Below are positions 2-45,325 of a stretch of DNA of 64,000 bases, piece by piece; positions within the stretch are counted from its first letter, which is position 1, and each line of letters opens with the position of its first letter. The position numbers and the translations under genes are program-made. The notes beneath the pieces are model-generated. The model saw only the letters and a list, made by a program, of their open reading frames with translations, ran no database searches and was not told the origin of the DNA. Location of the stretch: the NCBI GenBank assembly GCA_943349825.1, contig CALQZQ010000004.1, forward strand, positions 51,866-115,865, written 5' to 3'. Source of the DNA: Candidatus Peribacteria bacterium (GTDB taxonomy: Bacteria > Patescibacteriota > Gracilibacteria > UBA1369 > 2-02-FULL-48-14).

Positions 2-391
2 TATCCCGATGAAGAATTGACTCCAGAAATGAGGGAAGCACGGGATGCTTTTAGGGCTGATTTACAGGGAATTTTGGTGGGATCTGGCGATGTGGAGTTG
101 GGATTTAAGGATGCACAATCCTTTTCTGCTGATAAACGGCCGTATTCCCGTCTTCCCGAAGACAATATTCGTCAGTACTTCAACGCCCACCTCCCTTTGG
201 TGGAACAGTCAGACGATTCGGTTCTACTCATTGAAGGTTTACTCACCGACTTGTGGGAAGAAACGGCTTCTGTACTTCGAAAGTACAATCCATCTGCCTC
301 CATTGGTCCCATTGCTGGAACCAACTTTCGGACAGTCATCAATTGGGCGCATTGGGGGACGGTTTTTTTGCGTGATGGTGATGTACGTTGA
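2..391 (+). CDS. hypothetical protein, possibly 5'-truncated by the window edge
   Basis: The frame is open from nt 2 with no upstream stop. Possible internal starts are TTG17 and ATG29. Stop is TGA at 389-391. I recognised no motif. Confidence 0.45.
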   Translation, partial: YPDEELTPEMREARDAFRADLQGILVGSGDVELGFKDAQSFSADKRPYSRLPEDNIRQYFNAHLPLVEQSDDSVLLIEGLLTDLWEETASVLRKYNPSASIGPIAGTNFRTVINWAHWGTVFLRDGDVR

Positions 392-463
392 ACTGTACAT
401 TTCATTTTTCAATCAACCTGTAAAAATCTGTGCGCGCGCACAGATGTACAGTGAACTGTACGT
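381..463. repeat. intergenic composite repeat: a 16-bp perfect palindrome flanked by 20-bp direct repeats
   Basis: CTGTGCGCGCGCACAG lies at 428-443. ATGTACGTTGAACTGTACAT (381-400) and ATGTACAGTGAACTGTACGT (444-463) match at 17/20. An inverted second copy of the core lies at 42348-42405. Confidence 0.75.
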
Positions 464-12088: not shown

Positions 12089-12391
12089 CTAGTCTTCGTC
12101 GGCGCCTTCTTTAACGCTTTCTTCCATCTCATCGATGCTTTCGGTGAGTTCTTCCATTTGAGTTTCGATAGCGCCTTGCATTTCTTCCCAACTTTCGTCG
12201 TCGGCCTGTTCCATTTCGTCCAGGCTCATTTTGCAATCTTCCGCTTCGCGGCGAACATTGTTGAGATCTTCCGTGATGGCATCGTTCTCGTCGTTTTCCA
12301 TGCTGCTGATTTTTTCTTCGAGTTCATCGATGCGTTCATCCAAAGCTTCGAGTTCTTCGCGGAGCTTATCCATGATGTCAGAGCGGTCCAT
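12089..12391 (-). CDS. acidic coiled-coil protein
   Basis: A 100-aa ORF rich in Glu and Asp (EELEALDERIDELEEKISSMEND...). Confidence 0.5.
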   Translation of the reverse strand: MDRSDIMDKLREELEALDERIDELEEKISSMENDENDAITEDLNNVRREAEDCKMSLDEMEQADDESWEEMQGAIETQMEELTESIDEMEESVKEGADED

Positions 12392-12402
12392 GAGTGAAAG
12401 GG

Positions 12403-13629
12403 TTAACTTTTAAGCGGTTTCGAACGGAAATATATCACAAAGATTCCTGCTGCCAAGAGAATTAATCCGGCGGCGGTCCATGTGGGGAGATTTTGATCGA
12501 TGTTCACCAGGAAACCTGCGAGCAGTGGAGGCACGGCTTGCCCCAGAGCGCGGAGCGATTGCGTTATGCCCATGGCTTCGCCTTGTTCGTTGGGGCTGCA
12601 GAGATTAGAAAGCACCGCGGTTTCGTTGGGGAAGCAAAGCCCTTCGGCAATGGCCATGAAGGGTTGAATGAGGAAGAGCCCGGCTATGCCGCTGGGAAGG
12701 GTGATGGCAAAGAGTGTGAGGCTGAGGGCCACGAGGGCGTAGGGCAGGATTTTGGCAGGTGCGAAATGGCGAGAGACGATGCGAGTGACAAAGCCTTGAG
12801 CGAAGGCGATCCAGATTCCGATGTAAGCGAAAATAGTGCCGATTTGCGCTTCTGGGCTGTGGAATTTATCCACGAGAAAAACGGGAAAGAATTGAGTGAA
12901 GAAACAGAATCCAATCGAATGGAGAAAAATCACCAAGAAAATGGTGCGGAGTTTGTGGCGGCTCCAGGCTTTGCGCAGGTGCGTGAAGCCAATGAAAGGA
13001 TGTACGGCCCTAGTGGTTTTTTCTTGGAGCGTTTCATCAAACCAGAAAGAGATGAAGAACAGGTTGAAGAGGGAGAGTGCCGCGGCGAAGCAAAAAGGAA
13101 TGGTGGGGTTGAACCAAGAAACGAGAGAGGAATCGGAGAAGATTCCGCCTAAGAAGGGCCCAATGATGAAGCCAAAGCCAAAGGCCATGCCGATGAGGCC
13201 AAAGTTTTTGGCGCGGTTTTGAGGGGTGCTCGTGTCGGCGATGGCGGAACTGGCCACGGCGATGTTTCCGCCGGTGAATCCGTCTAGCGCGCGGCTGACA
13301 TAAAGCAGCCAGAGTTGCTGCGTGAGCAGACCGTAGGCAAAGAGTAGGTAGCCGAGCATGGTTCCGAAGAGGGAGGCCTGGAGTAGGGGTTTGCGTCCGT
13401 AGCGGTCGGAGAGGGTGCCGAGTACCGGGGCTCCAAAGAATTGAGCGATGGGGTAGGCGGCGATCAAGAGTCCGAGGGCGATGTTGCGTGTTTGTTCGCT
13501 CCAGGCGGCGGGTGCGATGAGGCTGGCCGGATCTTTCATCAGCGGGGCGAGTACGGGAATCAAAATGCCCACACCGATCAGGTCTAGGAGGATAATGAGG
13601 AAGAGAATGAGGAGCTTGTGTTTTTTCAT
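12403..13629 (-). CDS. MFS transporter (drug:H+ antiporter-like)
   Basis: Has about 12 hydrophobic segments and the MFS motif A GTLSDRYGRKPLL. Confidence 0.85.
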   Translation of the reverse strand: MKKHKLLILFLIILLDLIGVGILIPVLAPLMKDPASLIAPAAWSEQTRNIALGLLIAAYPIAQFFGAPVLGTLSDRYGRKPLLQASLFGTMLGYLLFAYGLLTQQLWLLYVSRALDGFTGGNIAVASSAIADTSTPQNRAKNFGLIGMAFGFGFIIGPFLGGIFSDSSLVSWFNPTIPFCFAAALSLFNLFFISFWFDETLQEKTTRAVHPFIGFTHLRKAWSRHKLRTIFLVIFLHSIGFCFFTQFFPVFLVDKFHSPEAQIGTIFAYIGIWIAFAQGFVTRIVSRHFAPAKILPYALVALSLTLFAITLPSGIAGLFLIQPFMAIAEGLCFPNETAVLSNLCSPNEQGEAMGITQSLRALGQAVPPLLAGFLVNIDQNLPTWTAAGLILLAAGIFVIYFRSKPLKS

Positions 13630-28572: not shown

Positions 28573-28590
28573 AAACTGGTCGGAGTGGCG
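28572..28590. repeat. orphan duplicate of the tRNA-Pro 3' end plus flank
   Basis: AAAACTGGTCGGAGTGGCG at 28572-28590 is identical to 28627-28645, which covers the 3' 14 nt of tRNA-Pro(CGG) plus 5 nt of flank. Confidence 0.8.
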
Positions 28591-28631
28591 AATATTTTGT
28601 GACCAACTCCTCCCATTTTACTTCGTAAAAC

Positions 28632-28708
28632 TGGTCGGAGTGGCGGGATTCGAACCCACGACCTCGGCGTCCCGAACGCCGCGCGCTAGCCAACTGCGCT
28701 ACACCCCG
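28632..28708 (-). tRNA. tRNA-Pro (anticodon CGG), CCA encoded
   Basis: Hand-folded cloverleaf: acceptor CGGGGTG/CACTCCG, D arm GCGC-AGTTGGCTA-GCGC, anticodon arm CGGCG-TTCGGGA-CGCCG, T arm GTGGG-TTCGAAT-CCCGC. Length is 77 nt. Confidence 0.9.
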
Positions 28709-32559: not shown

Positions 32560-35500
32560 ATGTTTAGCCTTCGCGGTTTGCGCAATACAATAGTGTTTGG
32601 TGCGGTTTTAGCTGTGGCTTACAGTTTTGCCCTTTTCTCGGCTCCTTCAACGGAAGCTGCGATTTGTCGCACGAATTTCGTTTACGTTGATTCTGGCGCC
32701 GGTACGGATCGCGCGGGATGTTGGGGAACCAACTCTGCGGATGCTTACGCCACGATTTCTGCAGCTTTGGCTGACCGAAATGCCAATTATTCCGGAACGG
32801 AGATCACCATTTACTTCAAGGGTGACGTCAATCAAACCTTGGACAACAGTGGATCTTCCAACAATGTGTATTTGAGACCGCAAACCTTGGGTGCTAGCAC
32901 TAAGGCGATTTTTACCGTGAAAGGAAGTAACTATATTCGAGTAGCCTATTTTAAATTCACTAGTTCAGGAGGAGTAAAGATGAATGGGACTGGAAACAAT
33001 ATTACGGTGGAAAACAACACGTTCAGTACGGCCACCACCTTTATTGATATTACAGGTTCCAATACGGCCATTATTGAGGATAATACTTTCCAATCTGGGT
33101 ACATTTACGACCACAACAATGCTGGACGCGTGACCATTTGGACCAATACCTTTACTGGAGCAGGTTCCAAAGGGGGATACCATGTTTCTGTTAACACTCA
33201 ATCTTCCGGGGGCATTGATTTTGTGGGAAACAAAATCACCAGCACGAGTGGCAACGGACTTTCCATGACTAGCGCTTCGGGAGCGATCATCATGAGCAAC
33301 ACCTTCACGGGGCCCGGTTCGGTGAGTTCTACCGCTGTGCAGCTTTCTGGTACTACAGGGAACATCCAAAACAACACCGTGACCGGTTATGGAAAAGGCT
33401 TTTTGGCACTTGGAACAGGAGCTACCAACCTCAACTATGTGGACAACAATAAGGTCACTTTGACCGATACGGCTACGGCTGAATCCATTGGATTTGGGTT
33501 CACAGGCATGAACATCACTCATTTTACCAACAACACGGTTTCTTCCGGGGATTATGGCCTTAAGGTGAACACCACTACGGTGAATGAAGTGCTGACGAAC
33601 ACTTTCACGAGCCTCAGTTATGCCGTGTTTGGAGATGCCCTCAGCCAACTTACCACTGTTTCCAATAATGGTTTTAGCTCTGTGGGTACGGGAATTTGGT
33701 TGGTGATGAGCACGTTCACGACCATCGATAGCAATCAACTGGCAGCGAGCTCTTATGGAATTTTATTGGAGACTACTAAGGGTAAATTCAGCAGCTGGAA
33801 TAGCGAAGGCACGCCTTCTGATCCTCCCGGAACCACCACTGCGGCTCAGTCTGTGATCAAGAACAATACGATCACGGGATCCAATGTGGGTATTGCGATG
33901 GCTGCTTACAATGTGGACGACATTCATAAAAATACTTTTGTGAATGTGGTGGATGGAACGGATATGTTCTTTTCTGCGGTCAACATTTTTAAGAACAATG
34001 TCTTGGGGCACAATGTGGCGATGGCCAATGGAAGAGGAGTTTATTTGAATGCTTCTTCTTTGGCTGATTTTTCTCGCAATGCTTTCAATGCCTTCCAATC
34101 TGGACTCAAGATGGAAGCGGCTTCTACGATTTCTACGCTTTTCGACAGCAATTCTTTCTCCGGTGGTACTTATGGAGTTTATTTGAACAGCTCTACTTTG
34201 GCGGTGCCTGTGACGAATGGTGTTTTTGCAGCGATGCCCAATGGGGTTTATCTTACGGCAGGGACTACGGGTTTCACGGTGCTTTATTCTACTTTCTATA
34301 GCAATACTACGGCGGTGCTTGTGGCAGCGAATTTGCCTGCCGGCAACGTGGTGAAGCTCGCCAACAACGTGTACTCCCAGTTCGGCCCTTACGCCGTGAG
34401 TGTTTTGGACAGTGCCGATTTGGGGCTGCTCGATTACAACGTTTATGAGCACGTGGCCGGGACCGCGATTCTGAATGTGCCTACCGGAGCTGTGACTTTG
34501 ACCGGGGCACGTGCGGGTGGTTTTGAAATCAATGCTTACGAAGAGAATGGCACCACGTTGGTTAACCCTGCCGCCGGGGACTATCACTTGCAAGCGGTGT
34601 CTCGTGCTGTGAACAGTGCAGATGTCACTTTTGTGGTAGCCAAAGATTTTGAGAACCGTGCGCGTCCAGTGTGTGTGACTTCTGACCGTGGAGCTTTTGA
34701 AGCTACTTCAGCTGCTTTTGCCGCTTTGTTTGATGGCGATGGAGATGGACTTTGTAACTTCCAGGAAACGGCGTGGGGAACGAGTGGAACTTCCACCGAT
34801 AGCGATGCCGATGGCGTGGCTGACTACAAGGAAATTTATCAAACGCTGACGGATCCCACCTTGGCCGACACCGACGGAGATGGCTACAGCGATGGGGAAG
34901 AAGTGCTGACTTACGGTACGGATCCTCTGGATGCTTTGGATCACGTGAACGACAGCGATCGTGACGGTATGGATGACACTTGGGAAACACTTTACGGCCT
35001 GGATCCTTTGGATGCCAGTGATGCCGCTACCGATTTAGATGGCGACGGTCTCACTAATCTTGAAGAGTACGAGGCGGATATGGATCCTTCTGATGCTGAC
35101 ATGGACAACGACGGATTGAACGATGGCGACGAAGTGAGTGCCGGTACCGACTGGATCAATCCCGATACGGATGCGGATGGCATGGAAGACGGCTTTGAAG
35201 TGACTTACGGCCTCGATCCCCTTTCTGATGACAGTGGTGACGATGCTGATTCCGATGGACTCACTAACTTGGAAGAGTACGACGCGGATACAGATCCCAC
35301 CGATAGCGATACCGATGGTGATGGAATGGACGATTACTGGGAACTCAACAATAGCCTCAATCCCACTCGCAACGATGGAGCTTCAGATTACGACCGTGAT
35401 GGACTCAGTAATCGTGAAGAGTACGTGCTGGGAACTTATCCCGATGACGACGACACGGATGGCGACGGTTATACGGATGGGGTGGAAGTGACGTATTCCA

Positions 35501-37854
35501 CGGATCCTTTGGATGCGGCAAGTTACCCCACTATCATCGACGATGATAGTGATGGAATGGACGATGCCTGGGAAGCTTTGTACAGCTGTATGAACGAAAC
35601 GGTGGACGACTCCACCGGCGATTCTGATGCCGATGGCCTCACGAACTACGAAGAATACACTTACTCTTCCAATCCTTGTGACGACGACACCGATGGTGAC
35701 ACGATGGACGACGGCTGGGAAGCGACTTACGGCCTCGACTTGAACACCAACGATGCGTCCAGTGATTTGGATGGAGATGGACTCAACAATTGGGAAGAAT
35801 ACCGTGAGGGCACGGACCCCAGCGACACGGATACTGACGGAGACTCCTTTGGAGACGGCGCAGAAGACACGGCCGGGACAGATCCTTTGGATGCCAGTGA
35901 CTTTCCACCGGATGGAGATTTGGATGGCCTGGCCGACCTCTGGGAAGACAGTTACAGCTGTATGGATTCCAGCGTGAACGATGCGGCCACCGACGACGAT
36001 GCGGACGGGCTCACGGCTTTGCAAGAGTATGGCTACGACACCAATCCTTGTGATGACGACACGGACAGCGACGGCATGGACGACGCTTGGGAAATCGATT
36101 ACGGCCTGGATGCTACGGTGAGCAGCGCTTCCACCGATACGGATTCTGACGGACTCACGGACTTGGAAGAGTACATTCTTGGCTCTGTGCCTACGGACAC
36201 CGATACGGATGGAGATGGCATGCCCGATGGTTGGGAAGAGAGTTATGGGCTCGATCTGCTTGTGAACGATGCGGCCAGTGATTTGGATGGAGACACTTTG
36301 ACCAACTTGGTGGAATACACTTTGGGAACTTCTCCTGCCAGCACGGACTCAGATGCAGATGGGATGCCCGACGCTTGGGAATACAGTTACGGTTTGGATG
36401 CGACGAGCAACGACGCCTCCAGCGACTTCGATAGCGATGGCCTCAACAATTTGGCCGAGTACACGGCTGGTACGGATCCCACGAACACGGATACAGACGG
36501 GGATGCCTACGGCGACGGAGTGGAGGTGAATGCGAGCACGGATCCTTTGGATGCTGCCGATCATCCTACCGATTCCGACGGAGACGGTATGGACGACATT
36601 TGGGAAGCCAGCTACACCTGTATGGATGCCGCCGTTTCCGATGCTACTACGGATGATGATGTCGATGGCCTGACGGCTACTGAGGAATACACGGCTGGTA
36701 CGGATCCTTGTACCGCCGACACCGATGGTGACGGATTCGACGATGGCGAAGAAATCTCTGGAGGCTACGACCCTTTGGATGCCACCGACTATCCCTTGGA
36801 TGCGGACGGCGATGGACTTCTGGATACCTGGGAAGTTTTATACAGCTGTATGGATGCCGCCGTTTCCGATGCTACTACCGATGATGATGTCGATGGCCTG
36901 ACGGCTACTGAGGAATACACGGCCGGTACGGATCCTTGTACAGCGGACAGCGATGGTGACGGATTCGACGATGGCGAAGAAATCTCTGGAGGCTACGATC
37001 CTTTGGATGCCACTGATTACCCCTTGGATGCGGATGGCGACGGACTCCTAGATACCTGGGAAGTTTTATACAGCTGTATGGATGCCGCCGTTTCCGATGC
37101 TACTACGGATGATGATGTCGATGGCCTGACGGCTACTGAGGAATACACGGCTGGTACGGATCCTTGTACCGCCGACACCGATGGTGACGGATTCGACGAT
37201 GGCGAAGAAGTGGATGCTGGGACCGATCCTTTGGATGCTCTGGATTTTCCTGCGGACTCTGATGGAGACGGTCTTACGGATGCTGAAGAAGCGCTTTTGG
37301 GGACGGATCCCTTTAGCAATGACTCTGATGGAGATTTGTTCACGGACGGTTACGAAGTGGAACAGGCCAGCGATCCTAGCAGTTCTGCCAGTACGCCCAG
37401 TTTGACGGTGAGCGTAGCGAACTACAGTGCGTTGGTGGGCTACGGTGAAAGTGGTAGTTGGACCTACTACGTGTATGGCTATGACGAAACACTGTTCCTC
37501 TCTATGACCACTTCGGATCAGTATTACGTTCAAAATGATTTCCGGACAACCCCTACAGGTGTGGTTGGTGCCGGCTTTGATGAGACCCAATACTTGGGGT
37601 CCGTTCTTGTTGAATTCTGTTCTCGAAGAACGGCCAGTGCCGATCCTACCTCGGACACGTGTTCTTCAGTCCCCGACTACAGTGCTGTGGGATCTCCTAC
37701 GACTCAAGCAACCCATTTAACGAGTTCAGCTCAAATGGAGGCGTGGACGGGACGTTTGTCTTTGTACTATACCTTCGATGACTTTTATTGGGTGCGGTCT
37801 GCGGATTCGACTCCCGAAGCCTTTGACTCTTTCCGTATTTCTCTAGGGTCTTAG
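32560..37854 (+). CDS. giant secreted protein: N-terminal parallel beta-helix repeats plus many thrombospondin-type-3-like Ca-binding repeats
   Basis: Start ATG32560 gives a signal peptide (MFSLRGLRNTIVFGAVLAVAYSFALFSAPSTEA). NNT/NNxF beta-helix-like repeats span aa 100-600. Dozens of DxDxDGxxDxxE units follow, ending in a unique tail of about 150 aa. Confidence 0.85.
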   Translation: MFSLRGLRNTIVFGAVLAVAYSFALFSAPSTEAAICRTNFVYVDSGAGTDRAGCWGTNSADAYATISAALADRNANYSGTEITIYFKGDVNQTLDNSGSSNNVYLRPQTLGASTKAIFTVKGSNYIRVAYFKFTSSGGVKMNGTGNNITVENNTFSTATTFIDITGSNTAIIEDNTFQSGYIYDHNNAGRVTIWTNTFTGAGSKGGYHVSVNTQSSGGIDFVGNKITSTSGNGLSMTSASGAIIMSNTFTGPGSVSSTAVQLSGTTGNIQNNTVTGYGKGFLALGTGATNLNYVDNNKVTLTDTATAESIGFGFTGMNITHFTNNTVSSGDYGLKVNTTTVNEVLTNTFTSLSYAVFGDALSQLTTVSNNGFSSVGTGIWLVMSTFTTIDSNQLAASSYGILLETTKGKFSSWNSEGTPSDPPGTTTAAQSVIKNNTITGSNVGIAMAAYNVDDIHKNTFVNVVDGTDMFFSAVNIFKNNVLGHNVAMANGRGVYLNASSLADFSRNAFNAFQSGLKMEAASTISTLFDSNSFSGGTYGVYLNSSTLAVPVTNGVFAAMPNGVYLTAGTTGFTVLYSTFYSNTTAVLVAANLPAGNVVKLANNVYSQFGPYAVSVLDSADLGLLDYNVYEHVAGTAILNVPTGAVTLTGARAGGFEINAYEENGTTLVNPAAGDYHLQAVSRAVNSADVTFVVAKDFENRARPVCVTSDRGAFEATSAAFAALFDGDGDGLCNFQETAWGTSGTSTDSDADGVADYKEIYQTLTDPTLADTDGDGYSDGEEVLTYGTDPLDALDHVNDSDRDGMDDTWETLYGLDPLDASDAATDLDGDGLTNLEEYEADMDPSDADMDNDGLNDGDEVSAGTDWINPDTDADGMEDGFEVTYGLDPLSDDSGDDADSDGLTNLEEYDADTDPTDSDTDGDGMDDYWELNNSLNPTRNDGASDYDRDGLSNREEYVLGTYPDDDDTDGDGYTDGVEVTYSTDPLDAASYPTIIDDDSDGMDDAWEALYSCMNETVDDSTGDSDADGLTNYEEYTYSSNPCDDDTDGDTMDDGWEATYGLDLNTNDASSDLDGDGLNNWEEYREGTDPSDTDTDGDSFGDGAEDTAGTDPLDASDFPPDGDLDGLADLWEDSYSCMDSSVNDAATDDDADGLTALQEYGYDTNPCDDDTDSDGMDDAWEIDYGLDATVSSASTDTDSDGLTDLEEYILGSVPTDTDTDGDGMPDGWEESYGLDLLVNDAASDLDGDTLTNLVEYTLGTSPASTDSDADGMPDAWEYSYGLDATSNDASSDFDSDGLNNLAEYTAGTDPTNTDTDGDAYGDGVEVNASTDPLDAADHPTDSDGDGMDDIWEASYTCMDAAVSDATTDDDVDGLTATEEYTAGTDPCTADTDGDGFDDGEEISGGYDPLDATDYPLDADGDGLLDTWEVLYSCMDAAVSDATTDDDVDGLTATEEYTAGTDPCTADSDGDGFDDGEEISGGYDPLDATDYPLDADGDGLLDTWEVLYSCMDAAVSDATTDDDVDGLTATEEYTAGTDPCTADTDGDGFDDGEEVDAGTDPLDALDFPADSDGDGLTDAEEALLGTDPFSNDSDGDLFTDGYEVEQASDPSSSASTPSLTVSVANYSALVGYGESGSWTYYVYGYDETLFLSMTTSDQYYVQNDFRTTPTGVVGAGFDETQYLGSVLVEFCSRRTASADPTSDTCSSVPDYSAVGSPTTQATHLTSSAQMEAWTGRLSLYYTFDDFYWVRSADSTPEAFDSFRISLGS
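36619..37225 (+). repeat. near-identical 228-bp (76-aa) tandem repeats inside the giant gene, about 2.7 copies
   Basis: TGTATGGATGCCGCCGTTTCCGATGCTACTAC... restarts at 36619, 36847 and 37075. Copies 1 and 3 are identical over about 150 nt, while copy 2 differs at a few mostly synonymous sites. Confidence 0.9.
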
Positions 37855-41056: not shown

Positions 41057-42112
41057 ATGCCTAAGCTCAAAAAACCACGACTTCGGAATGTGCTCAATAA
41101 AGTGACCTGTCTCCGTGCTTTGGCGGCCGAGCCGTTCAAACGGGTGACTTTGTCGTTTTACAGGTATGTGAAGATTGAAAATCCGGCAGATTTTAGAGAT
41201 CAGCTGTATGCAGAATGGGACAAACTTGGGGTTTTTGGCCGAGTTTACTTGGCTCGAGAGGGAATCAACGCGCAAATCAGCGTGCCAGAGCCCCAATTCG
41301 AGGCTTTTAAAGCCGCTTTGGAGGGCCATGCGGAGCTCGCCGCTATGTATTTGAACATTGCCTTGGAACAGGCAGAGTCTTTCTATAAGCTCACCATCAA
41401 GGTGCGAAAACAGATTGTGGGCGATGGTCTGCCGGAGGACAGCTACGATTTGTCCCAAGTAGGGAATCATCTGAACGCCGAAGAATTCAATACGGCTATG
41501 GAAAGTGAAGATGCCTTGGTGGTGGACATGCGCAATTTCTACGAAAGCCGCATCGGACATTTTGAAGGAGCGGTGTGTCCGGACAGCAACACTTTTAAAG
41601 AGGAACTTCAGATGGTGACCGAGCAGTTGAAGGATCAAAAAGACAAAAAAGTCTTGCTCTATTGTACGGGTGGGATTCGCTGTGAAAAGGCGAGCGCTTA
41701 TTTTAAACACGAAGGTTTTAAGGATGTGAATCAGCTGCAGGGAGGCATCATTTCTTATGTGCAGGAAGTGCGCCAGAAGCAGTTGGAGAGCAAATTCAAG
41801 GGCAGCAACTACGTTTTTGATGAGCGCATCAGCGAACGCGTAACAGAAGATGTGCTTTCTGAGTGCGACCAGTGTGGCGCCGCTTGGGACGGCTATACCA
41901 ACTGTGCGAATGCCACCTGCAATCTTTTGTTTTTGCAGTGCGCGGCTTGTGCGGAGAAATGGAATGGTGCTTGCACGCCGGAATGCCAAGCGGTGGTCTT
42001 GTTGCCGGAAGCAGAGCGCCGCGCGTATTACGCCAAGCAGCCACCCTGCACTCAGGAAATTTATCTATCTAGGATTAGGCCGAAGGCGAAGATAGGCAAA
42101 GAGCTCCGCTAA
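41057..42112 (+). CDS. trhO: rhodanese-domain tRNA uridine(34) hydroxylase TrhO (YceA/UPF0176)
   Basis: Contains FYRYVKIENP and LYCTGGIRCEKASAYF motifs plus a C-terminal Cys cluster. Confidence 0.85.
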   Translation: MPKLKKPRLRNVLNKVTCLRALAAEPFKRVTLSFYRYVKIENPADFRDQLYAEWDKLGVFGRVYLAREGINAQISVPEPQFEAFKAALEGHAELAAMYLNIALEQAESFYKLTIKVRKQIVGDGLPEDSYDLSQVGNHLNAEEFNTAMESEDALVVDMRNFYESRIGHFEGAVCPDSNTFKEELQMVTEQLKDQKDKKVLLYCTGGIRCEKASAYFKHEGFKDVNQLQGGIISYVQEVRQKQLESKFKGSNYVFDERISERVTEDVLSECDQCGAAWDGYTNCANATCNLLFLQCAACAEKWNGACTPECQAVVLLPEAERRAYYAKQPPCTQEIYLSRIRPKAKIGKELR

Positions 42113-42347
42113 ATTATTTGAGTGATCTCGCCCGTAATGTTAGTAAACATCCATCGGGTTGGCTTCGACCTAGAGTTGTTTTGGGGCGTTTTGTGCCTGG
42201 TGAAATTGGTGAGCTTCAAGGCCTTTTCTTCAATGAATTGCGTGTACAAGGATTCAAGCGAACTCCTTGGCAATTGGTTTTTCCTGGTCAGACGGCGGGT
42301 CTTATTAAACCGCTTTCACCACCTGCAGATGGTGTCAGTGAATATCA

Positions 42348-42405
42348 TGTGCGCGCGCACAGAATTTTACAGGCTCGTCCTAAGCTGAAATGTACAGTTG
42401 AATGT
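42348..42405. repeat. second (inverted) copy of the GC-palindrome element
   Basis: TGTGCGCGCGCACA (42348-42361) + GAATTTTACAGG + 16 nt + ATGTACAGTTGAATGTA. This matches the reverse complement of 388-443. Confidence 0.7.
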
Positions 42406-42504
42406 AGAGTTTGGTCTTAAGCATTGATGCAAATTACTTGCAATAGAAGCATCTAAGTCAGATTTTTGTCAGGACTTTTTTGTTATGATTGAGACGTTCA
42501 CTTT

Positions 42505-42573
42505 GGGCCCAGACTCGGTGTCCTCAACAGAGTTGTCATCTTGTTGGGTCGGGTTCAAATCCCGATGGGTCCA
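42505..42573 (+). ncRNA. candidate tRNA-like small RNA (acceptor stem + T-arm + one bulged hairpin, no canonical D/anticodon arms)
   Basis: GGGCCCA (42505-11) pairs with TGGGTCC (42566-72). The T-arm is TCGGG-TTCAAAT-CCCGA (42549-65) and the discriminator is A42573. The hairpin CAACAGA-GTTGTCA-TCTTGTTG lies at 42525-46. Confidence 0.4.
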
Positions 42574-42592
42574 CCGCTGAACAAGCGACAGC

Positions 42593-42626
42593 AAAAAGCC
42601 CTTTCCGTACGGAAGGGCTTTTTGAT
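42593..42626 (+). terminator. intrinsic terminator within repeat copy 2 (possibly bidirectional for the S-layer-like gene)
   Basis: AAAAAGCCCTTTCC-GTAC-GGAAGGGCTTTTTGAT with a perfect 10-bp stem. Confidence 0.75.
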
Positions 42627-42682
42627 CTCAACAGAGTTGTCTTTATTATTCTATTCCTAAGGCTACTCTTTTGCAATAATGC

Positions 42683-45325
42683 TTAGTTGAAGTACTGATC
42701 GTAAGCGAGGTCCAGAATCTTGGCGGCTTCACCACGAGTGATGGAGTTGTAAGGACCGAAGCTGCCGTCGCTGTAACCGTCCACGAGGTTGTCTTCGTCG
42801 GCGATCACCACTACTTCAGCGAACCAGTCGTTCACGTCTACATCCCAGAAGTCGATGTCGCTTTCATCGAAGCTGAAGTCGTCTTGTTCAGCCACGTTCA
42901 TCAGGATTTCTAGGAATTCTGCACGAGTGATGGCTTGGTCGGGTTTGAAGTTGCCACTGCTGTATCCGTCCACGTAACCCATGGCTGTAGCGTAGGTCAC
43001 ATAGGAGTAGTACCAGCTGCTGGAGGACACGTCGCCGTAGTGTACGGAAGACACGGAGTAGGGATCGAGTTCGGCATTGAGCAGAATCATCTTCAGGGCT
43101 TCAGCACGAGTGGTGGTGGAATCGGGATACATGCGCGTGTCGCTGCGTCCGTCCACTACTCCACGATCGTAGAGGTTACAGAAGTAAGGTTCGGACCATT
43201 CACCATCGAGGTCAGTGAAGTCTCCGCAAGAATCGCTGCCGCCGTTGGTGTCGATGCTATCTTCGTCCACGGTCATACAGTTGTTGCTTTCGCTGTCTTC
43301 ATCCACGTCGTCGTCGGTATCCACACAAACTTCTACTTCGTAAGTGCTGCCTTCATTTTCCAGAATGTCTCCGGCGCTGTAAGTGTCTTCTTCTCCTTCA
43401 TCCAAGAAGTTGGTGCTGGATGAACTTTGGGTCACGCTCTTGGTGTATTCCGCGTCGCCGTCCACGTAAACGGTGATGCTTACGGTTTCGCCGTTGTCCA
43501 CGTCGTCGTCTCCTACGTTGGCCACGGTGAAGTTGAGTTCATCGTCGCTGTCCAGGTAGATGTCGGTCACGTCGAGATCGGCATCACCGTTGGATGAAGA
43601 GCCATTGAATTCCAAGTCTTCTGTACGGCAATTGTTGCTTTCGCTGTCTTCATCAATGTCGTCGTAGTAATCGGAACAGATTTCGATTTCGTAGGTTTCA
43701 CCGTCGTCCCAAATGTTGTCGTTCTGGAAAGAGAAGGTGTTGGTTTCGTCTTCTTCAAAGTAACCCTCGGAGTAGCTGCTGAGGAATTCTCGGTCGCCAT
43801 CCACGTACACTGCAATGGCTACGGAATCGTCGGCGTCATCACCACCCTCGTTGCTCACTTCGGCGTAAAGATAATCTCCGCTGAAGTAAAGATCGTTCAC
43901 GGTGAGATCCGCATCGTCGGAAGAAGAACCGCCCATGGTGAGAGTTTCGGTGCGACAGTTGTCGCTCTCGTCGTCTTCATCCACGTTGTCAGTGGCATCG
44001 ATGCAGACTTCAATGGAGTGACTATCGTCCCCTGTGAGTTCATCGGCGAGGAAAGCGAAAGAGGTGCTTTCACCGGAGCCGAAGTAGTTGTAACCGATGG
44101 TTCCGGAGTATTCACGACTGCCGTCCACATAGACATACACGTAAACGGTGTCTGAGCTGGAGACGTCGTCGTCGCCTTCGTTGCTGATGTCAGCCCATAC
44201 GGCGTCGTTTTCGTAGTAGAGGTCGTCCACGGTGAGATCAGGGTCGTTGTTGCTGGAGCCTGTGCTGGTCATGCTCACGTAGGCTGTTTGTTGAGCGGTG
44301 CTGTCGGAAGTACGGTTGGCAATGGACACAGAATTGGTGCTGTAACCACTTGCAGAGACGGTAGCAGTGCTGCCGTCTTGAGAGGTAGGAACAGGGCAGT
44401 AAGCCACTCCACTAGAGATTGTACAGGTGGTGTTGCTGGTTCCTGCGTAGGCAGAACTGATGGTCACGTTGTTTCCTGTGCTGGAATCCTCCGCAAAAAT
44501 ACGGTGAGTGTAGTCCAGGTTTAAGTCTAGAATGTTTTGGGTGTGGTCCAGGGAGATACTGCTGGATTCTTGAACGTAACCTGTGACAGTAGCGGTGTAT
44601 TGGTAAACGGCTCCACCTGCAGGAGAGAAGAAACCGTAGTATTCGGTTCCGTTGCCTGCATTTTTGCTCACATAAACTTGAGCGTCAGCGCTACTGGAGG
44701 TGAAGCTATAGCTGGAGCTGTAGCTGCTGGGAGTATTTCCAAATTGATCTTCGATGGTCACCTTCATGTTGTAGTTGATGATACCGATTTGAGAAAACGT
44801 AGGGCTGCTGGAGTAGGTACTGCCAATAGAAAGTTTCACAAAGAAGTAAGAACCGCTGTATTGGTAGGCGTTTCCGTCTTCATCGGTGGTCATTAAAATA
44901 TTGGTTTTTTCCCAACCGGAAGGGCGAGTCCATTCCACTTGGAAGGTTCCATCGGTATTGTCGGAGATGCTGCCGGAGTTGTTGTTCACGAGCGTTGCCC
45001 AGGATCCACCGTCCCAGTATTCCACGGAGTAGCTTCCTCCAGTGGCTGAATTGTAGACATCTGCGGAAATTCCGTCGAACTTGTTGCTGTATCCAAGGTA
45101 AAGTTCGCTGCCGGCCCCTTTATAAAGGGTCACGTCGTTGGAAGAACCGTTGGATGCTGCTGTGGTTTTTTCGGTGAGTACTCCACCCGCATTTTGGATG
45201 ACGGAATCGACATAATCGTTGGAGTTGTCTGCGCCTGAATAAGTGACCGCTGCTGAGGCAAACTGGCCGGGGAGTAATCCTGAGAACAAGACTACGAGGC
45301 TGAGGAGGGTGAAAAATCTTTTCAT
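42683..45325 (-). CDS. secreted surface protein with CARDB-like repeats and three C-terminal SLH domains (S-layer-like)
   Basis: Has a signal peptide (MKRFFTLLSLVVLFSGLLPGQFASA). Units of the form DLTVDDLY...ISNEGDDD...VYVDG repeat 3-4 times. SLH motifs include VDGRSDTRMYPDSTTTRAEALKMIL, VDGYSSGNFKPDQAITRAEFLEIL and VDGYSDGSFGPYNSITRGEAAKIL. Confidence 0.8.
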   Translation of the reverse strand: MKRFFTLLSLVVLFSGLLPGQFASAAVTYSGADNSNDYVDSVIQNAGGVLTEKTTAASNGSSNDVTLYKGAGSELYLGYSNKFDGISADVYNSATGGSYSVEYWDGGSWATLVNNNSGSISDNTDGTFQVEWTRPSGWEKTNILMTTDEDGNAYQYSGSYFFVKLSIGSTYSSSPTFSQIGIINYNMKVTIEDQFGNTPSSYSSSYSFTSSSADAQVYVSKNAGNGTEYYGFFSPAGGAVYQYTATVTGYVQESSSISLDHTQNILDLNLDYTHRIFAEDSSTGNNVTISSAYAGTSNTTCTISSGVAYCPVPTSQDGSTATVSASGYSTNSVSIANRTSDSTAQQTAYVSMTSTGSSNNDPDLTVDDLYYENDAVWADISNEGDDDVSSSDTVYVYVYVDGSREYSGTIGYNYFGSGESTSFAFLADELTGDDSHSIEVCIDATDNVDEDDESDNCRTETLTMGGSSSDDADLTVNDLYFSGDYLYAEVSNEGGDDADDSVAIAVYVDGDREFLSSYSEGYFEEDETNTFSFQNDNIWDDGETYEIEICSDYYDDIDEDSESNNCRTEDLEFNGSSSNGDADLDVTDIYLDSDDELNFTVANVGDDDVDNGETVSITVYVDGDAEYTKSVTQSSSSTNFLDEGEEDTYSAGDILENEGSTYEVEVCVDTDDDVDEDSESNNCMTVDEDSIDTNGGSDSCGDFTDLDGEWSEPYFCNLYDRGVVDGRSDTRMYPDSTTTRAEALKMILLNAELDPYSVSSVHYGDVSSSSWYYSYVTYATAMGYVDGYSSGNFKPDQAITRAEFLEILMNVAEQDDFSFDESDIDFWDVDVNDWFAEVVVIADEDNLVDGYSDGSFGPYNSITRGEAAKILDLAYDQYFN

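Follow-up and report, generated by a model that had tools for sequence, protein, structure and literature searches.

Element B and its tRNA-like fold

We analysed a 64,000-nt stretch of the genome of a Candidatus Peribacteria bacterium (the window, in whose positions element B and its copy A are located below), concentrating on an intergenic cassette, element B, that specifies a 69-nt tRNA-like RNA on the plus strand and, as we predict, a short antisense RNA on the minus strand. Homologues of RlmN and TrhO assign the contig to Candidatus Peregrinibacteria. The element lies between trhO (41057-42112, plus strand) and the 3' end of a convergent SLH/CARDB gene (42683-45325, minus strand), and its parts are listed in Table 1. 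The plus strand of B folds with an energy of -29.2 kcal/mol (z -2.45), compared with -19.0 kcal/mol (z 0.14) for its reverse complement; the fold exceeds chance expectation. The sole wobble pair in the acceptor stem of B, G42507·T42570, is G3·U70. The loop of the anticodon-like arm reads N-UUGUCA in all copies, namely, B, copy A and the homologue L084 described below. Element B has neither an 8-9 linker nor a variable loop, and loop position 37 is C, for which reason the lower-half hairpin is considered non-decoding. A first-pass annotation, made from the sequence alone, had described the 7-bp acceptor stem with one G-U pair, the T-arm, the discriminator A, a short hairpin and strong terminator 3' of the tRNA-like part and a -10-like TATGAT upstream of a conserved block, all of which we recovered. 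It had also read the 37 intervening nt as a single bulged hairpin with no anticodon or D arm. This was incorrect, as the minimum free energy (MFE) and centroid structures contain two hairpins there, a minimal D arm and a 9-bp anticodon-like arm.

ARAGORN called neither a tRNA nor a transfer-messenger RNA (tmRNA) at element B. Comparison with Rfam gave no match for B at the gathering threshold and no tRNA match even at E values up to 10, where only weak junk matches appeared (e.g., mascRNA at 19 bits and the tmRNA T-arm at 8.4 bits). For the tRNA family (RF00005 and ARAGORN) we looked for a score above the model threshold and a cloverleaf having a 4-bp D stem, a 5-bp anticodon stem, a 7-nt loop with a purine at position 37 and a variable loop; B is set apart by C37 and by the missing 8-9 linker and variable loop. 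For tmRNA we looked for a score above 47 bits against RF00023 or the permuted RF04321, together with a tag reading frame and pseudoknots; B scored 8.4 bits, from the T-arm only, and just 37 nt separate its acceptor strand from its T-arm. The annotation's statement that B is neither a normal tRNA nor a tmRNA therefore holds. An Asp-type reading of the loop as UUGUCAY (anticodon GUC, A37, one-base shift) was rejected because in L084 the first loop base, C, breaks the closing pair that it needs. A custom scan of both strands requiring a perfect T-arm and a 7/7 acceptor stem, covering the window and the Peregrinibacteria loci L001, L002, L011-L014 and L053-L061, matched only real tRNA-Pro genes, element B and one further tRNA-like locus.

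G3:U70 is the major identity element for alanyl-tRNA synthetase (AlaRS) (PMC7609411), and this determinant is used in tmRNA too (PMC3985003). Both B and L084 carry G1-C72, G2-C71, G3·U70 and A73, and in both the acceptor/T domain has each tRNA-Ala-type feature that we looked for (G3:U70, A73, a 7-bp stem and a canonical T-arm). The 22-mer at 42552-42573, which runs from the T-loop as far as the discriminator, recurs unchanged in a tRNA-Ala(GGC) gene at L081 3874-3947. It occurs exactly once in IMG/VR, in a tRNA-Ala(GGC) with the acceptor stem GGGCUCA/UGGGUCC. The contig L081 that bears this tRNA gene is a 118-kb phage-like contig (IMGVR_UViG_3300014205_000185) and may represent a phage of Peregrinibacteria or of a relative. 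Judged from sequence, the top half of B is specifically of the tRNA-Ala type. Element B thus resembles tRNA-Ala and alanine minihelices in its 7-bp acceptor stem, G1-C72, G2-C71, G3·U70, A73 and T-arm, whereas its 3-bp D stem with a 5-nt loop, its 9-bp bulged arm, C37 and its encoded CCG end are unlike tRNA-Ala.

Table 1. Coordinates of element B, copy A and the related tRNA-like locus (window positions unless a locus is named)
Feature	Position	Strand	Remarks
Left-end cassette remnant (TTGGGGCGTTTTG...GAGCTTCA)	42181-42218	+	At locus B
Direct repeat GTCAG-N6-GTCAGG	42457-42473	+	Ends 10 nt before the -10 box
Extended -10 element TGtTATGAT	42481-42489	+	TATGAT at 42484-42489, TG at -15/-14; predicted start G42496
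5' leader GUUCACUUU	42496-42504	+	9 nt; identical in B, A and L084; presumed RNase P leader
tRNA-like RNA	42505-42573	+	69 nt; MFE and centroid structures coincide; pair counts over three sequences
Acceptor stem GGGCCCA/TGGGTCC	42505-42511/42566-42572	+	7 bp
Mini D hairpin GAC-UCGGU-GUC	42512-42522	+	3 bp; 5-nt loop carrying GG
Anticodon-like arm	42523-42548	+	9 bp; loop GUUGUCA at 42532-42538; bulge U42541
Direct repeat DR1 CTCAACAGAGTTGTC	42523-42537	+	5' strand and loop of the anticodon-like arm; predicted antisense target
T-arm TCGGG-TTCAAAT-CCCGA	42549-42565	+	Canonical
Discriminator A	42573	+	Position A73
Trailer with small hairpin CGCU-GAACA-AGCG within CCGCTGAACAAGCGACAGC	42574-42592	+	One substitution in L084
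Intrinsic terminator	42593-42623	Both	A5, G+C-rich hairpin, T5; T-tract at 42619-42623
Direct repeat DR2	42627-42641	+	Exact copy of DR1, 3 nt past the terminator T-tract
Predicted antisense RNA	42590-42641	-	~50 nt; 5' 15-nt seed complementary to DR1, then terminator hairpin
Sigma-70-type promoter TTGCAA-17-TAGAAT	42648-42676	-	Position +7 is 42641
Copy A	23937-24220	+	Paralogue of B; between rlmN and dedA
DR2 of copy A	24165-24180		
Minus promoter of copy A	24215-24187		
Second tRNA-like gene	L053 12468-12545 (region 12366-12720)	Window's minus	78 nt; same contig, ~360 nt beyond window position 1

Homologues and conservation of the fold

The first-pass annotation had suggested a search for further copies; those known are copy A, a full cassette in the related contig L084 and a remnant in L083. 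Copy A shares with B the GTCAG repeat, the spacing to the -10 box, the leader, the mini D hairpin, the anticodon-like arm, the trailer block and the terminator, as well as the block TATTCC...TTTTGCAATAATG. A hairpin of ~40 nt has been inserted into its T-loop and ~10 nt have been deleted, and with 3/7 acceptor pairs remaining both the acceptor stem and the T-arm are lost. In L084, whose RlmN is 89% identical, the cassette occupies the same rlmN-dedA site with the tRNA-like fold intact, reading GGGCCCA GAC-TTGGT-GTC CTTGGCAGA-CTTGTCA-TTTTGCTGGG TCGGG-TTCGAGT-CCCGA TGGGTCC A. It retains the acceptor stem, G3·U70, the T-arm, the mini D hairpin, the -10 box, the leader and the terminator. In L083 (RlmN 90%), a remnant of the element's 3' part (nhmmer E value, 2e-9) lies beside a type II RelB/ParE (YafQ) toxin-antitoxin pair at the rlmN-dedA site (1351-2041), while L011 (98%) has an unrelated 132-aa gene at this site (1119-1517) and L012 (85%) is empty at this position. 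The space between rlmN and dedA is a hot spot for insertions. The cassette in L084 and the remnant in L083 indicate that the element was ancestral at this site in the clade and was repeatedly lost or replaced. An earlier view of copy A as a recent insertion, absent from L011 and L012, was dropped once these two contigs showed ancestral presence. Copy A is a degenerate orthologue, and copy B a paralogue that has retained the ancestral form.

Where the window has 570 nt at locus B, the syntenic relative L059 has 12 nt, from which we conclude that B is an ectopic insertion. The locus is a patchwork of copied intergenic pieces, and ~238 nt of unrelated inserted sequence splits the left-end remnant from the remainder of cassette B. 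One copy of a 72-nt repeat also falls within the 570-nt insertion; the two copies, at window positions 42335-42406 (plus strand) and 384-454 (minus strand), share 79% identity, a palindromic core TGTGCGCGCGCACA and TGTACAGTT boxes, and may serve as an operator/promoter or constitute a small mobile repeat. The insertion further contains a 100-aa open reading frame (ORF) (42118-42420, plus strand; 83 aa according to the assembly's gene caller), which matches nothing in Pfam and probably does not represent a gene.

Base pairs were counted on an alignment of B, L084 and A (three sequences, two of them from one genome), with slid partners and 500 shuffles as controls. All nine pairs of the anticodon-like arm were paired in 3/3 sequences, with three double changes, four one-sided changes and two invariant pairs. 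The mini D stem contained one flip from A-U to U-A among the three sequences, and the acceptor and T stems were identical between B and L084. Overall, 96.7% of the cells were paired, compared with 43-61% for slid partners. The first-pass annotation had proposed a dedicated small tRNA-mimic transcript, a proposal that would fall if relatives showed no structural conservation. The fold is kept in L084 with compensatory changes in the arm, and the orthologue and these substitutions support such a transcript as far as comparison of sequences allows. The annotation's alternative, a very unusual tRNA relic, is disfavoured by this evidence, although copy A has lost its T-arm and acceptor stem.

Expression signals and a repeat complementary to the tRNA-like RNA

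Upstream of the tRNA-like part, the direct repeat GTCAG-N6-GTCAGG keeps the same 10-nt spacing to the -10 box in copy A (23961-23977) and in L084, and its only exact matches in the window are in the two elements, A and B. No TTGACA-like -35 box was found upstream of the -10 box of B; the repeat occupies the place of a -35 box and may be an activator site. The sequence GTTCACTTTGGGCC, 6 nt downstream of the -10 box of B, occurs twice in the window, and the distance from the end of the -10 box to the conserved GTTCAC is 6 nt in B, in A (TAGAAT) and in L084 (TGcTAATAT). The trailer belongs to a 37-nt block that is identical between A and B. The reverse complement of the terminator presents the same hairpin followed by CUUUUUG, and the A-tract and T-tract are retained in 3/3 copies; having both tracts, the terminator should act in both directions.

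The location of the element in A and in L084, directly upstream of dedA in the same orientation and with the terminator 70-80 nt before the ATG, fits a cis-acting dedA leader or attenuator in which the tRNA-like fold senses a factor and the terminator controls read-through. We regard this as improbable. The fold is intact in B, which has no downstream plus-strand gene and is faced by the 3' end of the convergent SLH/CARDB gene. Moreover, no antiterminator alternative was seen, judged by eye, and a separate promoter-like TGcAATAAT stands 10-11 nt before the dedA ATG, also in element-free relatives. Finally, a leader would leave DR2 and the minus-strand promoter, described next, unexplained.

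The cassette carries a direct repeat and a convergent promoter, features of a sense/antisense arrangement that are absent from the first-pass annotation. Copies A and L084 each carry their own DR2, matching their own DR1, and at least six element-specific changes in DR1 are mirrored in DR2. In L084 both repeats have C as the first loop base, where B and A have G; this position is unpaired, and the concordance therefore does not arise from intramolecular pairing. Four of the five mismatches between DR1 and DR2 are of the G/A or T/C type, in which RNA:RNA pairing is preserved through G·U. A minus-strand promoter, TTGCAA-17-TA(G/A)AAT, is present in B, A and L084, compared with an expectation of 0.3-0.5 promoter-like sites per region, and its position +7 is the last base of DR2 in 3/3 copies despite differing DR2 boundaries. 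The predicted antisense RNA has a single-stranded seed of 15-17 nt across the copies. Cognate duplexes between seed and sense RNA have energies of -28.0, -29.7 and -30.2 kcal/mol, with longest complementary runs of 15, 15 and 17 nt, whereas non-cognate duplexes have energies of -15.4 to -24.2 kcal/mol and longest runs of 6-13 nt.

Several other explanations of the repeat and of the minus strand were rejected. A minus-strand ORF (46-58 aa) is mutually out of frame in A and B across DR2 and the terminator, and a protein-database search with this spurious ORF over the element matched only the window's own ORF. That DR1 and DR2 are operators of one DNA-binding protein was rejected as the main explanation, since the two sites change in concert but in a way particular to each copy. 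Had the element integrated through recombination of DR1 with a target, the gene order would be permuted, which was not observed, and a possible 4-bp ATTG duplication at locus A is too slight to carry weight. An att scar in a tRNA gene does not fit either, as the repeat consists of the 5' strand and loop of the arm, lies 90 nt away and covaries in three lineages. No recombinase domain was detected in the scanned neighbour genes, and none beside either copy in the gene tables of the fetched contigs.

The same data bear on whether the element is a non-functional relic, that is, a decayed tRNA-Ala spread by segmental duplication in which the repeat is a leftover of tandem duplication or an integration scar. 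Both window copies are insertions relative to some relatives (L011 and L012 do not have A, and L059 has 12 nt for 570 nt), locus B is assembled from copied pieces, copy A is visibly degenerate, and the genome bears tRNA-end scars, such as a tRNA-Pro 3' end repeated 42 nt downstream. However, L084 and B differ at many positions, yet every stem is held, with compensatory changes, and the acceptor and T stems are identical between the two. In addition, DR2 tracks DR1 through those at least six changes, and the spacing from promoter to start is conserved on both strands. Neutral decay would not yield this combination of kept stems, tracking repeats and kept promoter spacing, and a relic is therefore unlikely.

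The arrangement matches that of par of the Enterococcus plasmid pAD1, in which the promoters converge, the terminator is bidirectional and the direct repeats are transcribed in opposite directions (PMC7472228). Like B, the par (Fst) locus and its homologues combine these promoters, a shared terminator and oppositely transcribed repeats with an antisense RNA of ~40-50 nt, a second region of complementarity provided by the repeats, paralogues that are cognate specific and a U-turn-type UNR motif in the target loop (PMC7472228). Unlike par, B has one repeat pair rather than two, a tRNA-Ala mimic and a host from the candidate phyla radiation (CPR). By sequence prediction, B has the promoters, terminator and repeats of the par layout, but no hydrophobic Fst/Ldr toxin of ~30 aa with a Shine-Dalgarno sequence was found in it.

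This likeness to par (PMC7472228) is one reason to consider a type I locus in which the plus RNA is an mRNA encoding a small toxic peptide and the antisense RNA masks its start region. B (GTG 42518, 20 aa), A (30 aa) and L084 (20 aa) share an ORF that lies in one frame and ends at the same stop (CAC CGC TGA); DR1 spans its codons 2-6, the indel between A and B is 30 nt and hence in frame, and the same intergenic site in L083 carries the RelB/ParE toxin-antitoxin pair. However, the ORF has no Shine-Dalgarno sequence, and its product MSSTELSSCWVGFKSRWVHR is hydrophilic rather than hydrophobic, with neither an Fst PXXXG domain nor a Pfam match. Between B and L084 it shows five non-synonymous changes to one synonymous, while RNA pairing is kept. 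The ORF traverses the perfectly conserved T-arm and acceptor strand, and its conservation is thus explained by selection on the RNA. We consider a toxic-peptide mRNA very unlikely.

A predicted mimic-antisense cassette

We favour, with a probability of roughly 55%, the interpretation that B is a cassette of ~280 nt comprising a tRNA-Ala-derived mimic gene and a convergent gene for its cognate antisense RNA. As predicted from sequence, both strands would be transcribed and the mimic processed, charged with alanine and regulated as follows. On the plus strand, the extended -10 promoter would drive a transcript of ~130 nt with a 69-nt tRNA-Ala-derived core. In this mimic the Ala-type acceptor, the T-arm and a minimal GG D loop would be retained, and a long non-decoding hairpin would take the place of the anticodon arm and variable loop. 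RNase P would remove the 9-nt leader, after which the 3' trailer would be trimmed and CCA completed, and AlaRS could charge the matured mimic. On the minus strand, transcription would start from the sigma-70-type promoter at the outer end of the 15-17-nt DR2 and stop at the shared bidirectional terminator, giving an RNA of ~50 nt. The single-stranded 5' end of this RNA would pair with the loop and 5' strand of its own mimic, opening the hairpin and so controlling the folding, stability or activity of the mimic. As hairpin and repeat evolve fast but together, each copy would have its own cognate antisense RNA, which we liken to multicopy type I toxin-antitoxin loci.

Several observations weigh against this interpretation. 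Copy A keeps the antisense features without the tRNA-like top half; either the top half is dispensable for some roles of the cassette or A is decaying. The 3' end of B reads ACCG (that is, CCG), while the real tRNA genes of this genome encode CCA, and an L-shape is not assured, given the absent 8-9 linker and variable loop. The minus-promoter block is also present at the rlmN-dedA site of the element-free relatives L011 and L012; overlap of this promoter with the dedA promoter is therefore possible, as is a different reason for its conservation. The known homologous sequences number only three, two being of one genome, and 21 of the 500 shuffles reached the observed pairing score, a modest control; with three sequences and this control, the support from covariation is only moderate. 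Pattern scans of metagenome and genome contigs for the 18-19-mer CGCTGAACAAGCGACAGC gave chance matches only, as checked with nhmmer, although the pattern is too strict, missing even the L084 variant ...GCGACAAC. Searches of viral, phage and plasmid sequences found no homologue, and their one useful match was a tRNA-Ala that shares the T-arm and acceptor strand.

A bolder extension of the mimic-antisense interpretation is an RNA-only addiction or regulatory module, in which an alanine-accepting, non-decoding mimic is the effector and its cognate antisense RNA is the antidote that unzips its arm. Besides being charged by AlaRS, the mimic would be recognised by RNase P and the CCA enzyme, and perhaps by EF-Tu. 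We consider such a module rather unlikely; if it exists, the mimic could titrate the tRNA machinery, misuse it or pass on alanine outside translation. The module would then be a type I-like pair in which a tRNA mimic replaces the peptide toxin, spreading in CPR genomes as a cassette of ~280 nt.

A second, more distant example of the design lies close by on the same contig. The one further locus matched by the custom scan, L053 12468-12545, is called a tRNA-Thr(tgt) by ARAGORN, and its best Rfam score is to tmRNA, with 34.3 bits via both model ends. The gene has G3·U70, A73, CCA, a poor anticodon stem and the loop AUUGUCA. Downstream lies a degenerate copy of the gene's own 5' half, within a minus-strand unit of promoter (TTGCCA-18-TACTAT) and terminator, and the predicted duplex between this antisense and the tRNA-like RNA has an energy of -48.8 kcal/mol. 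By these features, the design is thus present twice, in diverged form. The L053 gene is flanked by direct repeats of 30-40 nt (CTGTCGTCGGAsTTCCGACAGCGCGATTTT) and adjoins TraG/VirB4-like genes and pilin genes of a type IV secretion system.

The tmRNA score of L053 is one argument for reading B as a minimal tmRNA-like rescue RNA, reduced to a tRNA-like domain, acting with SmpB and charged with alanine, like the reduced tmRNA of jakobid mitochondria. Reduced tmRNAs exist (PMC3590771). G3·U70 and A73 are present in B, and its topology (an acceptor, a short GG D analogue, a long helix abutting the T-arm and no variable loop) resembles the tmRNA domain. Indeed, the tRNA-like domain of tmRNA, including that of jakobid mitochondria, is like B in its Ala-type acceptor and T-arm, its long helix without a variable loop, its reduced GG D region and its lack of anticodon function (PMC3985003, PMC3590771). 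However, B matches only the T-arm of the tmRNA model (8.4 bits), ARAGORN finds no tmRNA, and a D analogue of the GGAUUCGAC type is absent. Unlike tmRNA, B has neither an mRNA-like domain nor pseudoknots; a cognate antisense RNA is not a feature of tmRNA, and it is left unexplained together with the fast-evolving helix. We therefore hold a rescue RNA to be highly improbable.

Other non-decoding RNAs with a tRNA-like fold are thought to attract RNase P and further tRNA enzymes through it (PMC4919922). The mascRNA/menRNA, the c4 antisense RNA of phages P1/P7 and bacterial YrlA share with B a non-decoding tRNA-like fold. Closest in kind to B are such enzyme-processed tRNA-like RNAs and the tRNA-like domain of tmRNA, its reduced forms included. 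The matches to the mascRNA model were weak, at 17-19 bits. Element B is not a member of these groups by sequence or model, and they lack such a convergent trans-complementary partner. We found no paper on such RNAs in Peregrinibacteria or Patescibacteria and, as far as we searched Rfam and the literature, B belongs to no described RNA family and the pairing of a tRNA mimic with an antisense RNA of this kind has not been described.

The genomes of CPR/Patescibacteria are tiny, and to our knowledge almost no regulatory RNAs have been described from them; the cassette would be a clear and testable example. It would join tRNA mimicry based on AlaRS identity with a par-type convergent antisense RNA, a combination that those searches did not return. 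If charged, the mimic would amount to an alanyl "minihelix" that occurs naturally, stands alone and is controlled by an antisense RNA, which bears on how tRNA genes give rise to aminoacyl carriers that do not decode, tmRNA-like ones included. Evolving quickly and in step, hairpin and repeat would also offer a small natural system for the divergence of RNA-RNA specificity between paralogues.

Further observations concern the surroundings. The tRNA-modification genes rlmN, trhO and dus are found close to the three tRNA-like loci; this proximity was not used as evidence, the position of B being ectopic. Near the SLH/CARDB surface-protein genes, a very large gene at window positions 34700-37400 is filled with thrombospondin-type-3-like DxDxDG repeats, which show up as many families of direct repeats. 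The 3' end of a tRNA-Pro(CGG) gene, CGCCACTCCGACCAGTTTT, occurs at window positions 28577-28595 and 28632-28650 (minus strand), repeated 42 nt downstream of the gene, and resembles the att-type scar that an element leaves on integration or excision.

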